The position numbers were made by a program, and so were the translations under genes. From NCBI RefSeq assembly GCF_054482595.1, contig NZ_CM137008.1: a DNA stretch of 64,000 bases; one strand, 5' to 3'. The notes under the pieces are model-generated. The model worked only from the letters and a program-made list of their open reading frames with translations, made no database searches and had not been told where the DNA came from. Shown here one piece after another: positions 19,195 to 50,954 of the stretch. Each line of letters starts with the position of its first letter. Within the stretch, counting starts at the first letter, position 1.

Positions 19195-20484
19195 TTAGCT
19201 GAACAGAGAGTAGAAGATTGCGGAGATTGCAATCAGACCCATCACGACAACGAATACGTTGCTGATGTGACCGCTGTACTTACGCATTGCCGGTACTTTC
19301 TGAATTGCGTACATCGGCATCAGGAACAGGATCATCGCGATGATTGGGCCGCCCAGGGTTTCAATCATACCCAGGATGCTCGGGTTCAGGGTGGCAACAA
19401 TCCAGGTCGTTACCAGCATGAACAGCGCAGTGATACGGTTCAGCTTGTTGATTTCGATAGACTTACCTTTACCACGCAGAGATTTAATCACCATACCGTT
19501 GAAGCCTTCACGTGCGCCCAGGTAGTGGCCGAGGAAGGATTTGGTGATAGCGATAATCGCGATAATCGGAGCCATCCACGCGATAACCGGTGCGTTAAAG
19601 TGGTTAGCCAGGTAAGACAGAATCGAGATGTTCTGCTCTTTAGCCGCAGCCAGGTCTGCCGGAGTCAGGCTCAGTACGCAGCTGAAGACGAAGAACATTA
19701 CGGTCAGCACCATCATGATGTGTGCGAATGCCAGGATCTTCGAGCATTTCTGTTCTGCCATATCGCCGTACTCTTCACGCTTCGCAACGGCGAAAGAAGA
19801 GATGATCGGAGAGTGGTTGAACGAGAACACCATTACCGGAATTGCCAGCCACAGGGTCATCCACAGACCGTTTCCGGTTGCAGATGCAGTGTCCAGAGAC
19901 AGCGTTTCCAGTGCTGCGCCGTTCCACTGCGGGATGAGGTACAGAGCCAGCAGCATCAGTACGCCAACAAACGGGAATACCAGAATACTCATCGCTTTAA
20001 CGATCATCTGCTCACCGAAGCGAACGATGGTCATCATACCCACGATCAGGATCAGCGACAGAATCGCACGCGGCGGTGGCGTCATACCCAGCTGGTGAGA
20101 CATGAAGCTTTCAACTGTATTGGTGATTGCCACGCTATAAACCAGCAGGATCGGGTAGATAGCGAAGAAGTAGAGCAGGGTAATCAGTTTACCTGCGCCA
20201 ATACCAAAGTGTTCTTCTACAACCTCGGTGATGTCTTCGCCCGGGTTTTTACCAGACAGTACGAAGCGAGTCAGGCCGCGGTGAGCAAAAAACGTCATCG
20301 GGAACGCAAGGATAGCCATGATGATCAGCGGGATCATACCGCCAACACCGGCGTTGATTGGCAGGAACAGCACGCCCGCGCCGATTGCCGTGCCGTAAAG
20401 GCCCAGCATCCACATGGTGTCTGTCTTGCGCCAGGCACTACGAGAGTCTTTCGACGCAATCGTGCTGGTTTGAGTCGTTTCCAT
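19195..20484 (-). CDS. sdaC: Serine:H+ symporter (HAAAP family)
   Basis: 429-aa polytopic ORF upstream of sdaB. Confidence 0.92.
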
Positions 20485-21040
20485 CTATTTCTCCTGGAGG
20501 AATGCAAATAATTCAGCTTTTAGCCAGTTCAGCCCGGGAAGGTGCCTGACCGTAAAAATGAAATCTGTCTATCGGCGATGGCTTAATCATTTACCGCCGT
20601 AATAATTTGAGGGCGGAAAGATACACACAAGTTATGTATCTATCAGTGATCTTGATCTCAAATACAATAATCTACTTGGAAGATAGATTATCCCAACGCT
20701 TTACTCTGTAAATCAAAAGTAAAAGAGAATTTAAGGGCAATATTTGCCCATTAAACGACATCTGACTTCTTCCGGGGCGCGCAATATATGTAGGTTGAAC
20801 TGAAAAAATCAATACTTTTAGTTAATCATGGCGATAATTTCTTTTTCATAGCGATAAAATACGGTTTATGAAAATAGGGAAACGTTTGCGTTGCAACATA
20901 AATTGTATGACATATTAACTGTGATGATATTTGTCGCGTGAGGGTGGTAAGAAACATTCATATAACAAATGAAATGAGTTGATGAGTAAGTGACCAAAAA
21001 CGAGAAAACCCGGCAACAAACGTCACCGGGGGAGCGGAGA

Positions 21041-22405
21041 TTACGTGCAGATTTCGTAGCAAGGGATGTAGGCTGAGCCTGGCAACTTCATACGATGCTG
21101 GGCAACAAAACCCTGTAGCAGGTCGTCCATACGACGCATAATCTCTTTATCGCCGTTGATTTTGTAAGGACCAAACTCTTCAATGGCGCGAATACCGACT
21201 TCTTTTACGTTACCCGCCACAATACCGGAGAACGCACGGCGCAGGTCGGCAGCCAGCACTTCAACAGGTTGATCCGGGTAAAGCTTCAGATTAGCCATAT
21301 TCTCGTGAGACGGCTCAAACGGCATTTGCAAATCTGGTGCAATGCGCATTGACCAGTTAAAGCTGTAAGCGTCACCAGTGTCGCGGCGATTTTCTTTCAC
21401 CAGCGGCATCGATTTTTTCATCTGACGAGCGACTTCAGCGGCGTCATCAATGATGATGCGGTAATGGCGGCGCGCGTTTTCGCCCAGCGTATGTACGACA
21501 AACTCGTCCAGTACGCGGAAGTAGTCGGCGCTCTCTTTCGGGCCGGTGAGGATCAATGGTAAAACCTGATCTTTGTTGGCCGGGTTCATTAAAATTCCCA
21601 GCAAATACAGCAACTCTTCTGCCGTACCCACACCTCCAGGGAAGATAATGATGCCGTGAGCGATACGGACAAACGCTTCCAGACGTTTTTCGATATCCGG
21701 CATGATGATCAATTCGTTGACCAGCGGGTTAGGCGGTTCAGCGGCGATAATCGACGGCTCTGTCATACCAATAAAACGACTGTCTTTGTAACGCTGCTGC
21801 GCGTGTCCGACCGCAGCACCTTTCATCGGCGCTTCCATCGCTCCCGGACCACAGCCGGTGCAGATATTCAGCTCACGCAGGCCCAGCTGGTTTCCGACGC
21901 GACGGGCATACAAATACTCATTTTCGTTAATTGAGTGACCGCCCCAGCAGACCACCATATTTGGCGCTTCACCCACATGCAGCGCGCGAGCGTTACGCAA
22001 GATGGAAAAGACCAGGTTAGTGATGTGGACGGAGTTGTCGAGATTCAGGTTGGGAAAACGAACGGTATTATGGATTTGCCCGTAAACGAAGAGAATGTCT
22101 CGCAGAACCGCGAACAAGTTGGCCTGCAAAGCGCGAATAATTCGCCCATCGACAAAAGCCTCTTCCGGGGGATTAATCAGTTCCAGCTTTACGCCGCGTT
22201 CACGGCGCAGGACGTTAATATCGAAATTTTCAAAACGAGACAGCAATTCTTTGCTGTTATCGGTCAAACTACCGGAGTTCAGTACGGCAAGTGAACAGTT
22301 GCGAAACAGTTGATAGAGGTCGCTGCTGGCGGTGCGTTTAAGCATATCCACTTCCAGCTGCGACAACATATCCATGGAGCCAAGCGGGCTAATATGTGTA
22401 ATCAA
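21041..22405 (-). CDS. ppnN: Nucleotide 5'-monophosphate nucleosidase (LOG family)
   Basis: 454-aa ORF; LOG-type PGGxGTxEE motif ([10 protein letters not shown]). Confidence 0.88.
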
Positions 22406-43035: not shown

Positions 43036-44177
43036 CGGCCGGATGAACCGCCGCCTCCTGAAGAACCGCCACCACCGCGGAAAGAATTTCTCGACGAAGA
43101 GCGAGAGTGAGCATTACGATTCCCCGTTTTCCTGTTGCTTTTTTCTCCTGATCCCAGCTTAAGATTGCCAGTAAATTTGGCCACAATGATCAGCAGAACG
43201 ATGCCAGCAATGGTTATTGGACCGATAAAATGATCAATTAACCCAATAATTGTTGAGATGAATGCAATATCTTTAATACTGGCGAACACCAGGCACCATC
43301 CCACAATAATTATCAGCATCACGACAAACAATGAATTTCGTCCTGATTCACGAACCTGCGGAGTCTTCTTTTGTTTTTTCACTTTAGCGTTTTTATTTTT
43401 TGGGGCCAGCATCATAGGAAATACGCGGCACAAATTAAAAACTACCGCGAGACGCTGCTTGCAGGTTGTTGCTAACAATAAACTAAAACAAACGATCGAC
43501 ACCCGCCGAATGATGACATCGTCCTGAAAGGAGAAAAACCAGACCATAGGGGTAATCATCGATATCATCCATATGCCACGCCGTGGGCGGCTGGCAAATC
43601 GCCAGAGGACAACGATGGCAACGATCATCAGCAGTGTCCAGGCAAGACATGGCAGCGAACGTTGCGGATTAGCAAACAGATGATTGGCTAAAGCATCCAA
43701 AGGGCTAAGGTTCGCTTTGATATGGGTAAACTGTGCGATGCTTTCAATTCCGCCCGTTAATCCAGCAAAGAGATTGTTTTTTTCGAATTCTGGCTGCATA
43801 TGGTAACGAACAATTTGCGCAGCTTGTTCCGGCGGCAACATCTGTTCCAGTCCATGTCCAATCTTCATTGACGCCAGCCCTTCCGGCCATACGACGAGAA
43901 TTAAGATACCTTCGCCATATCGCTTCTCTCCAACGGGTTTCCAGTGATATACCCCGTATCTCTGCGAGGCTGCAAGTTTAATGTTTTTGCCCCCTGTGGT
44001 CGGCGTAACCAACACGGCCACCTGGAAGTGGTTTTGCTGCTCGAGAGTCTGTAATTGTTGAGTTAAAGCAGTTTGTTCTTCTGTCGTTAATGTCCCGGTT
44101 AAGTCAGTCACTGAAGGCAATCGTTCAGCGAATACCTGAAAACCGCATAGCATCAGAAGTAAGAGAAAAATACGCAT
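43029..44177 (-). CDS. TPM-domain membrane protein, divergent paralog 2
   Basis: 382-aa ORF: signal peptide, TPM-type region (VAVLVTPTTGG...ILILVVWPEG...GHGLEQ), several hydrophobic helices, Lys-rich linker, Gly/Ser tail ending SGRW. Confidence 0.7.
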   Translation of the reverse strand: MRIFLLLLMLCGFQVFAERLPSVTDLTGTLTTEEQTALTQQLQTLEQQNHFQVAVLVTPTTGGKNIKLAASQRYGVYHWKPVGEKRYGEGILILVVWPEGLASMKIGHGLEQMLPPEQAAQIVRYHMQPEFEKNNLFAGLTGGIESIAQFTHIKANLSPLDALANHLFANPQRSLPCLAWTLLMIVAIVVLWRFASRPRRGIWMISMITPMVWFFSFQDDVIIRRVSIVCFSLLLATTCKQRLAVVFNLCRVFPMMLAPKNKNAKVKKQKKTPQVRESGRNSLFVVMLIIIVGWCLVFASIKDIAFISTIIGLIDHFIGPITIAGIVLLIIVAKFTGNLKLGSGEKSNRKTGNRNAHSRSSSRNSFRGGGGSSGGGGSSGRW

Positions 44178-44191
44178 ATCAATTCCTTTTG

Positions 44192-45115
44192 TTACCAGCG
44201 CCCGGAAGCGCCACCGCCACCAGATGAACCGCCACCACCGCTAAAATTGTCATTGTCGAATGAAGAGGATGACGATGATGAATAGTGGGAGAAAGAATTG
44301 CTTCTTGTATGGCGTGATGGCTGGTTGGCATCACGCATCAAATCCCGAACTTTTTTGCCGAAGGGGGTAAAAGCGATGGCGACAGCCAGGAACGGTGTGG
44401 CGAAGCAGAGTAATGTTGTGAGTACTCCCCAGCTTCCGCTGAAACCTGCTATAGGTAAAACAAAGGCCAGTACAATAGCTGCGAAGCAAATTACTCCCAG
44501 CGTTTTGATATATCCTCTGGCAGAAATAAACGTCAGTACTATCGCCCAGGCTAACAAGGCCCACCAACCGCTAAAAGGTAAAGGGTGATCGGCCGGTGCT
44601 ATCGTCGCTAAATTATTCCCTGCCAAACGGTTTTCAATATCGCTGAGTCCCTTTTGCAAGCCGCCAGCAAGATCACCATTTTTAAATGCCGGAATAATAC
44701 TGTTGCGAATAATTTGCCCGGACTGCGCATCCGTAATAATACCTTCCAGTCCGTAACCGATTTCAATACGCACGGTATGATCCTGCCAGGCGACTAACAG
44801 TAGAACGCCATCATCGCTGTCTTTATCACCCGGTTTCCAGCTATCGAATACCCGCGTTGCGTACTGCTCGATGGTTTCATCGCCTGTTGTATCAACCACT
44901 AACACGACCAACTGTGCGTGGTTTTTTTGCGTCAGGGCTTTAATCTGGTTGGTCAGGGTGTTTACTTCGCTGTTTGTTAATGTGCCGGTTAAGTCATTCA
45001 CATACTTGGGGGATTCAGGTACTGGAATTTGTGTGGCAAACACAGATGAACAGAAGAAAGCCATAAGGAAGATAAAATTTCGCACAGAACTTCCCCGCTT
45101 AATGAGCATTAGCAT
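44192..45115 (-). CDS. TPM-domain membrane protein, paralog 1
   Basis: 307-aa ORF very similar to 42130..43035 (LVVLVVDTTGDETIEQYATRVFDSWKPG...LLLVAWQDHTVRIEIGYGLEG), Gly/Ser tail ending SGRW; start codon ambiguous among the first Mets. Confidence 0.75.
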   Translation of the reverse strand: MLMLIKRGSSVRNFIFLMAFFCSSVFATQIPVPESPKYVNDLTGTLTNSEVNTLTNQIKALTQKNHAQLVVLVVDTTGDETIEQYATRVFDSWKPGDKDSDDGVLLLVAWQDHTVRIEIGYGLEGIITDAQSGQIIRNSIIPAFKNGDLAGGLQKGLSDIENRLAGNNLATIAPADHPLPFSGWWALLAWAIVLTFISARGYIKTLGVICFAAIVLAFVLPIAGFSGSWGVLTTLLCFATPFLAVAIAFTPFGKKVRDLMRDANQPSRHTRSNSFSHYSSSSSSSFDNDNFSGGGGSSGGGGASGRW

Positions 45116-45701
45116 TCTGGCTAAAATCTATTGTTGGGGCTTTACTTACTGCGGCGACATCATCCGGTAAATAATTTTTCTTTGGCGTGTAATCCATGAC
45201 CTTTGCGGTTAATACAGCGGGGAATTTGCGGATAGTGACATTATATTGTTCAATGGCTTTAATATATCTTCCTCGCGCAACGGCAATTCTATTTTCACTT
45301 CCTTCGAGCTGTACCATTAAGTTTTGATAGAGTTCCTGAGATTTTAACTCAGGGTAACGCTCACTAATTATCGTTAACTGACCGAGAGTGCGAGTCACCT
45401 GCGCTTGAGCCTGTTGCCAGGCTTGTAATTTTTGTTCATCTCCCGGAGTTTGCTGAAGATCGCTACTGGCGCGATTAGCCTGGCTACGAGCCAATGTTAC
45501 GGCTTCCAGTACATCTCGTTCATGGCTGGAATAACCTTTAATGCTGGCGACAAGATTAGGAATAAGATCGGCGCGACGTTGATATTGATTCAATACCTCA
45601 GACCAGGAGGCGTTAACCTGCTCATCATAGGTTTGAATATCGTTATATCCACAGCCTGATAAATTGAAAATAAATATAATTACGATGAATATTCTGAGCA
45701 T
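45099..45701 (-). CDS. LemA-family protein (predicted lipoprotein)
   Basis: 200-aa ORF; N-terminal hydrophobic segment with lipobox LSGC; LemA-like helical region; first gene of the operon. Confidence 0.75.
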   Translation of the reverse strand: MLRIFIVIIFIFNLSGCGYNDIQTYDEQVNASWSEVLNQYQRRADLIPNLVASIKGYSSHERDVLEAVTLARSQANRASSDLQQTPGDEQKLQAWQQAQAQVTRTLGQLTIISERYPELKSQELYQNLMVQLEGSENRIAVARGRYIKAIEQYNVTIRKFPAVLTAKVMDYTPKKNYLPDDVAAVSKAPTIDFSQNANAH

Positions 45702-50882: not shown

Positions 50883-50954
50883 GTGAGAGTAATCACGCTT
50901 CTGCTTTTTAAAACTATTTGATAATGCGAATATCACACTGTGATTACGATCACA
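50883..50954. promoter_or_regulatory. Two CRP-like boxes in the yqcE/ygcW divergent region
   Basis: tgtgaGAGTAAtcacg (50883..50898) and perfect TGTGAttacgaTCACA (50939..50954). Confidence 0.55.

Follow-up and report, generated by a model that had tools for sequence, protein, structure and literature searches.

The window analyzed here is a 64,000-nucleotide stretch of DNA in which ppnN (21041–22405) and sdaC (19195–20484), both annotated on the minus strand, flank a gap of 556 bp (20485–21040). The gap is the ppnN-sdaC intergenic region of E. coli K-12 (NC_000913.3, 2927673–2928228), with which it is 100% identical; a K-12 coordinate equals 2948713 minus the window position, and the K-12 plus strand is the window minus strand. 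A 721-nt query over the gap showed 100% identity to MG1655 and was found in 5425 of 5426 complete E. coli genomes. The downstream operon, sdaCB, encodes L-serine import and deamination. An earlier note on this DNA gave the coordinates and minus-strand neighbors exactly (ppnN end at 21041, sdaC start at 20484) and described the gap as AT-rich, in agreement with a GC content of 0.379 versus 0.507 for the whole window, and 0.333 between 20680 and 21000. It was also right in calling the gap unusually long: among the annotated gaps of the window only ygcE-queE (1372 bp) is longer, the ppnN-sdaC gap is the longest between co-directional genes, and ppnN-sdaC synteny with a gap of 436 to 648 bp is kept in 77 of 80 Enterobacteriaceae loci. 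The ygcE-queE spacer (~43967–45338; K-12 2903375–2904746) lies between convergent genes, has no annotated feature, and constitutes the longest unannotated stretch of the window. The curated K-12 record has zero features in the ppnN-sdaC gap, though sokX, ameF, csrB, gcvB, and yqcG are annotated elsewhere in the window.

The comparative set consisted of 80 sdaC loci from different Enterobacteriaceae species, three of which were left out for having too little upstream DNA or no ppnN match. Alignment of the gaps from the 77 species disclosed very patchy conservation; the initial ~100 bp past ppnN could not be aligned, a few islands appeared in mid-gap, and the conservation profile peaked at 20675–20595. 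The stretch from 20677 to 20611, reading AAGTGGATTATTGCATTTGnGATCnnGATCACTGAT...TAAATGTATCTTTCCGCCC, was almost invariant from Escherichia to Buttiauxella and Cedecea.

At the ppnN end of the gap, a terminator scan identified an intrinsic terminator on the minus strand (21004–21030), composed of the hairpin CCCGGTGACGTTTGTTGCCGGG, with a 9-bp stem containing six GC pairs, followed by a T-run. The corresponding ppnN 3′ UTR is ~37 nt. Published Term-seq data place the ‘primary’ ygdH 3′ end at K-12 2927709 (Adams 2021 supplement), equivalent to window position 21004, the end of the hairpin plus T-run. Transcripts that begin at the ppnN TSS (K-12 2926271) and span both ppnN and sdaC were detected by SMRT-Cappable-seq (PMC6131387 supplement), and because of this read-through the terminator is leaky. 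Transcription of ppnN is stopped, incompletely, right past the stop codon. A separate strong Term-seq 3′ end was noticed in the sdaC-sdaB spacer at ~19162 (K-12 2929551), 25 nt upstream of sdaB and behind the hairpin GCGCCGCTTTCGGGCGGCGC, pointing to some termination or processing within the operon between the two genes.

The most conserved block of the gap carries a candidate CRP site on the minus strand, aTTTGAGATCAAGATCACTgat (20642–20663), whose core extends from 20660 to 20645 and is centered at 20652.5. This core, TGAGA-TCAAGA-TCACT, agrees with TGTGATCTAGATCACA at 13 of 16 positions; two matches of this quality occur in the 64 kb, compared with 0.15 expected. Downstream of it lies the −10 hexamer of the proximal sdaC promoter, TATCTT (20618–20623, minus strand), which matches the consensus at four of six positions, including A2 and T6, and is conserved. 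A −35-like sequence, CTGATA (20646–20641, minus strand), overlaps the CRP site. The segment TGTATCTT is near-invariant among the 77 species, and the spacing between the CRP center and the −10 hexamer is identical in 75 of them. Assigning TATCTT to −12 to −7 therefore puts the CRP center at −41.5 and the start of transcription at 20611, and yields a leader of 127 nt. This start, which had been predicted beforehand from the −41.5/−10 geometry and the conservation, coincides with the primary sdaC TSS mapped by SMRT-Cappable-seq at K-12 2928102 (forward), given for both b2796 and b2796-b2797-b2798 transcripts (PMC6131387 supplement). The mapping comes from this one high-throughput dataset, and its operon table contains no sdaC start other than 2928102.

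Conservation, geometry, and the mapped TSS together argue that the proximal element is the native sdaC promoter, presumably a class II CRP-dependent sigma-70 promoter, with its dependence on CRP, stated repeatedly in the literature, taken from there. Class II CRP promoters such as galP1 and the synthetic CC(−41.5) have CRP centered at −41.5 (summarized in PMC10882989). The sdaC promoter shares the essentials of this class, namely a predicted 22-bp near-consensus CRP site at −41.5 from the mapped TSS, a weak −35 overlapped by that site, and a weak −10; what it has in addition is ~390 bp of upstream DNA (YieP, PurR, Lrp) and a weak promoter-like element further upstream. In the proposed mechanism, cAMP-CRP bound at the near-consensus site, over the weak −35, would recruit RNA polymerase to the weak −10 TATCTT, with initiation at 20611.

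Two further observations concern this part of the gap and its CRP motif. An inverted repeat, GATACATT-N9-AATGTATC (20619–20644, −33 to −9), overlaps the −10 hexamer; its arms are 87% complementary over 76 sequences and show no real covariation. A dimeric repressor might use the repeat as an operator, or it may be coincidental. Elsewhere in the window, the CRP consensus is strongly matched only by TGTGATTACGATCACA (50939–50954, plus strand), in which both half-sites are perfect; by coordinate conversion this match falls inside ygcS, ~100 bp from the ygcS start.

Upstream of the promoter, several regulator sites reported by others could be positioned to the base. The two YieP sites given in the Methods of PMC8282354 each have a unique exact match in the window, on the minus strand: site 1, ATTTGTTATATGAAT, at 20956–20970 (−359 to −345), and site 2, ATATGTCATACAATT, at 20901–20915 (−304 to −290). 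Site 2 lies under the published IPOD-HR and ChIP-exo peak, and the sites were supported in that study by EMSA, ChIP-exo, and lacZ reporters with scrambled sites (PMC8282354). Adjacent to them is a PurR operator (PUR box), ACGCAAACGTTTCCCT, at 20876–20891 (minus strand, −280 to −265), which is also unique in the window. We noticed this palindrome by its conservation and then matched it to the motif AGGGAAACGTTTGCGT listed for ‘sdaC-sdaB’ in the PurR ChIP-chip table (Cho et al. 2011, PMC3159470), which is its exact reverse complement. At least 10 positions of the 12-bp core were retained in 49 of the 77 species, compared with 5 of 1540 shuffled controls. Lrp ChIP enrichment has been described at sdaC and ygdH, and EcoCyc gives an Lrp site ~200 bp downstream of the YieP peak (PMC8282354).

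The position of these sites is less typical than their sequence. Like the operators of the PurR regulon (PUR box ACGCAAACGTTTTCNT; PMC3159470), the sdaC box is a 16-bp element under an in vivo PurR peak, according to the data of that paper, and it is conserved over genera; unlike them, it is located 265–280 bp upstream of the mapped TSS, and about −107 from the distal promoter-like element described below. The YieP and PurR sites together span −265 to −359 from the mapped TSS, unusually distant for direct activation or repression. PurR operators usually overlap the promoter. The ~390 bp of AT-rich upstream DNA carries, as additional inputs, the two YieP activator sites, the PurR operator, and Lrp binding, all established by others. 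We infer that these far sites may reach the promoter either through an Lrp-type nucleoprotein structure acting at a distance or through the weak distal promoter.

Downstream of the start, the sdaC 5′ UTR occupies 20485–20611 on the minus strand (127 nt from the mapped TSS) and measures 105 to 132 nt in other genera. The earlier note expected the sdaCB promoter and a long 5′ UTR within the gap. The promoter is present there, as the CRP block and the TSS at 20611 indicate, and so is a 5′ UTR, but the latter is only 127 nt long; because the start maps to 20611, ~430 of the 556 bp belong to the terminator and upstream regulatory DNA. The leader contains the conserved A/U-rich motifs AAAATTA, AAAAAACCG, and ATTTCATATTA. 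It also holds the only covarying helix of the gap, a stem-loop GUCAGG...CCUGAC (20511–20550, minus strand) found by RNAalifold between columns 65–70 and 100–105. In this helix of five pairs, 88.6% of the cells were paired, compared with 77.2 ± 1.9 in shuffles, and changes on both sides numbered 20 versus 7.6 ± 2.0 in shuffles, whereas slid registers gave 9–49%. The arms in E. coli, at about 20550–20545 and 20516–20511, are degenerate and register-shifted, and the segment is missing from the Klebsiella/Raoultella group, where the UTRs are 105 nt. The helix is read here as an ordinary leader stem.

The leader ends with a Shine-Dalgarno sequence, AGGAG (20495–20491), embedded in the ArcZ pairing site CCAGGAGAAA (20488–20497, minus strand; −13 to −4). 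ArcZ is reported to pair with −13 to −2 of Salmonella sdaC (Papenfort 2009, cited in PMC11331407). Overexpression of ArcZ is also reported to lower sdaC mRNA in E. coli. The seed UUUCCCUGG pairs with CCAGGAGAAA at −16.3 kcal/mol, which equals the mean of shuffled seeds, so that support for the ArcZ-sdaC interaction comes from the published experiments only; CCTCCAGGAGA is retained in most of the 77 species. In the ArcZ/Hfq-repressed mRNAs of Salmonella (sdaC, tpx, and STM3216; Papenfort 2009, cited in PMC11331407), the 5′ seed of processed ArcZ pairs with the sdaC SD region; the present site is the same target and no variant of it. The leader can thus be pictured as A/U-rich with one short conserved stem and a strong SD at its end, which according to published work is occluded by the Hfq-dependent sRNA ArcZ with repression of translation as the outcome.

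Some conserved features of the gap stand outside this account. Two DNA islands are shared across genera with no assigned factor, TTTTTACAG at 20808–20800 and AATGGTAGCCTT/CGCCCATAAAT at 20753–20729. In Escherichia, the second island is partly replaced by the palindrome GGGCAAATATTGCCC (20748–20734). The hairpin that this palindrome would form, GGGCAA-ATA-TTGCCC, was considered as an attenuator or terminator and rejected: the terminator scan does not flag it, it is broken in E. whittamii and lineage L005, and other genera have an unrelated conserved sequence at the same place. A further layer of control might be built from such pieces, with a 25-codon leader ORF (described below) and the covarying stem forming a translation-coupled or sRNA/Hfq-docking switch, and with the islands TTTTTACAG and AATGGTAGCCTT/CGCCCATAAAT serving as sites for unidentified regulators or as part of a condition-specific distal promoter for YieP and PurR; we consider this unlikely.

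The distal element just mentioned is a sigma-70-like sequence, TTGATT-N18-TATATT (20783–20812, minus strand), with a GC-rich discriminator and a predicted start near 20776. If it were the main sdaC promoter, the leader would be ~290 nt and the CRP block would lie inside it. This is how recent papers and databases have treated the element: Heyde 2021, Frendorf 2024, PMC10882989, and PMC8282354 take TATATT as part of the sdaC promoter (‘PsdaC’). The promoter scan scored it at 9 of 12 positions of the sigma-70 consensus, and its hexamers are kept in Escherichia and partly in Salmonella (TTGATT-N18-TATCTT). Its −10 is also hit by up-mutations through which cya mutants regain the ability to use serine. 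Of these cya-suppressor insertions (Heyde 2021, Frendorf 2024; PMC10882989, PMC8546631), +A lies at K-12 2927924 and +ATT at 2927928, equivalent to window positions 20789 and 20785, within or adjoining TATATT (20788–20783); they increase sdaC expression. As we read the sequence, inserting ATT behind 20785 would produce a perfect TATAAT. The YieP and PurR sites would lie at a more usual distance from the distal start, about −107 to −187. The long distance from the mapped TSS leaves room for a functionally important distal promoter in unsampled conditions; as an example, sdaC rises ~20-fold in rich medium with glucose, a low-cAMP condition (PMC8282354).

Against a leading role for the distal element, the SMRT-Cappable-seq table contains no TSS for it, while 2928102 was captured for two transcript classes. 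The ‘PsdaC’ TSS cited by Heyde 2021 and Frendorf 2024 is a computational prediction, and their authors state that no sdaC promoter had been verified experimentally. Across the 77 species, the distal hexamers are poorly conserved outside Escherichia and Salmonella, in contrast to the CRP/−10 spacing at −41.5 that is invariant in 75. Gains toward consensus at the −10 are, in addition, the kind of mutation expected to activate a weak or cryptic promoter once the native CRP-dependent one is dead, as in a cya strain. The published PsdaC reporter covers the whole gap and, because it includes both elements, does not tell the proximal from the distal promoter. On balance, we judge it quite improbable that the distal element is the main promoter. 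The element is probably weak or cryptic and normally minor, and in cya mutants the 1–3 bp insertions at its −10 probably make it active independently of CRP; in mechanistic terms, TTGATT-N18-TATATT would be a second promoter of minor output unless such insertions switch it on in the absence of CRP. This places it beside other weak or cryptic promoters activated by −10 up-mutations (PmalT*, PsdaC*; PMC10882989, PMC8546631), in that +A and +ATT in TATATT make sdaC expression cAMP-independent. The difference is that those papers regard TATATT as ‘the’ sdaC promoter, whereas here it is read as a second element 165 bp upstream of the native one. Possibly, the distal element is used under unsampled conditions, with YieP and PurR acting through it.

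With the proximal element as the native promoter, the coding potential of the gap can be set against a defined transcript. The earlier note saw no convincing ORF in the gap while allowing that a small protein might have been missed. The first statement held: of the 22 ORFs of at least 10 aa on both strands, all are intact in just 0 to 4 of 76 other species, with the exception of an 11-aa TTG ORF that falls within the conserved CRP site and precedes the TSS. The second found no support, as that ORF is also the only one of at least 10 aa conserved beyond Escherichia. The only candidate left was a 25-codon leader ORF, MIKPSPIDRFHFYGQAPSRAELAKS (20513–20590, minus strand). Its translation in Escherichia, either to modulate sdaC or to yield a small protein, would fit its position wholly within the mapped leader, with the ATG at +22, GGCGG 4 nt upstream of it, and the end 28 nt before the sdaC ATG. 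The frame is preserved in all six Escherichia sequences, where five changes are synonymous and four nonsynonymous although only ~23% of the sites are synonymous. This excess, however, is nominal (binomial p ~0.03 by hand calculation, before transition bias and multiple ORFs are taken into account) and is built on few substitutions. Further, the SD is weak (GGCGG), the ATG is absent from all other genera, and only three of 76 other species preserve the frame. The ORF is missing from the curated K-12 annotation, which has many Ribo-seq-derived small proteins, it had zero calls in a protein collection of 15 billion sequences, and PGAP calls were absent among the genomes listed. The ORF is probably not a gene, and a translated, Escherichia-specific uORF at this position is, in our view, distinctly improbable.

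Two other frames were rejected. A leucine-rich 29-aa uORF (ATG at 20761, ...NSLLLLIY...), considered as a possible leader peptide of the leu type, is located before the mapped TSS, has an unconserved start, and contains early stop codons in both E. coli APEC O1 and Escherichia lineage L005. A 43-aa ORF (20957–20826, minus strand) appears as a ‘hypothetical protein’ in some E. coli GenBank records, where its cluster comprises 19 sequence variants. None of 76 other species has it intact, it is located upstream of the TSS, and it overlaps YieP site 2 as well as the PurR box, so that a gene-caller artifact is the probable explanation. A survey of intergenic smORFs did not mention the sdaC gap.

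The covarying stem raises the question of whether the leader acts in cis as an RNA sensor, a riboswitch or attenuator answering a metabolite or translation. Its one helix with real covariation and its several conserved A/U-rich motifs would be in line with such a role, and in Salmonella and some Citrobacter, the stem is followed by a U-run and is so terminator-like. This U-run, however, was read from the alignment in only ~7 of 30 species, and in E. coli no Term-seq 3′ end occurs there; nor did the terminator scan find a terminator-like site in the leader. The helix has only five pairs and, as noted, is lost in Klebsiella/Raoultella and degenerate in E. coli. The consensus fold of the leader is weak (−1.6 kcal/mol, RNAalifold), the E. 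coli leader has no extra stability relative to shuffles (z = +0.48), and it matches no Rfam family. A sensor of this kind is therefore very improbable, and the stem is better taken as an ordinary leader stem. An additional 5′-terminal stem, CCGCC...GGCGG, was discarded; the 5′ side of this stem is the promoter discriminator and precedes +1, and the apparent ‘compensation’ arises because different 3′ segments pair in differing registers with one invariant arm.

The remaining suggestion, also raised in the earlier note, was an sRNA gene overlooked in the gap. The length of the gap, its AT-richness, and the conservation of that length could accommodate one, and in a scan of both strands with 140-nt tiles (fold z-scores −2.7 to +0.9), two tiles on the sdaC strand, 20621–20760 and 20551–20690, folded better than shuffles (z = −2.5 and −2.7). 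Both signals, however, could be attributed to two inverted repeats in the DNA before the TSS. The first, ATAATCTA...TAGATTAT (−80 to −56), is E. coli-specific, with 57% of cells paired family-wide compared with up to 50% in slid controls. The second is the GATACATT...AATGTATC repeat at −33 to −9, in which 87% of cells are paired without covariation because both arms are invariant promoter sequence. An Rfam search of 3.5 kb at E ≤ 10 returned noise only, and a promoter and terminator scan of both strands of the gap gave nothing beyond the promoter-like sites already explained and the ppnN terminator. The Term-seq list has no 3′ ends between that terminator, the only one in the gap, and the sdaC coding region, the next same-strand end being inside sdaC. 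As the curated record moreover leaves the gap unannotated while giving four sRNAs elsewhere in the window, an independent sRNA gene, sense or antisense, is exceedingly unlikely. The SMRT-Cappable-seq and Term-seq maps point instead to no more than a simple sdaC 5′ UTR, the outcome that the earlier note had named as speaking against its proposal.

Taken together, the gap is very likely the cis-regulatory region of the sdaCB operon plus its leader, without a separate gene. Nearly every element in it had been published before, and the regulatory DNA is ordinary and largely known; the added value of this analysis is the reconciled position of the sdaC promoter. With the native promoter 165 bp downstream of TATATT, the cya-suppressor mutations can be re-read as activation of a second, CRP-independent promoter, and the relocated start also alters the distance of the YieP and PurR sites to the start of transcription. 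Within ~550 bp, one serine-catabolism operon receives several inputs, from CRP (carbon), PurR (purine/one-carbon), Lrp (amino acid), YieP, and ArcZ (oxygen/growth phase).
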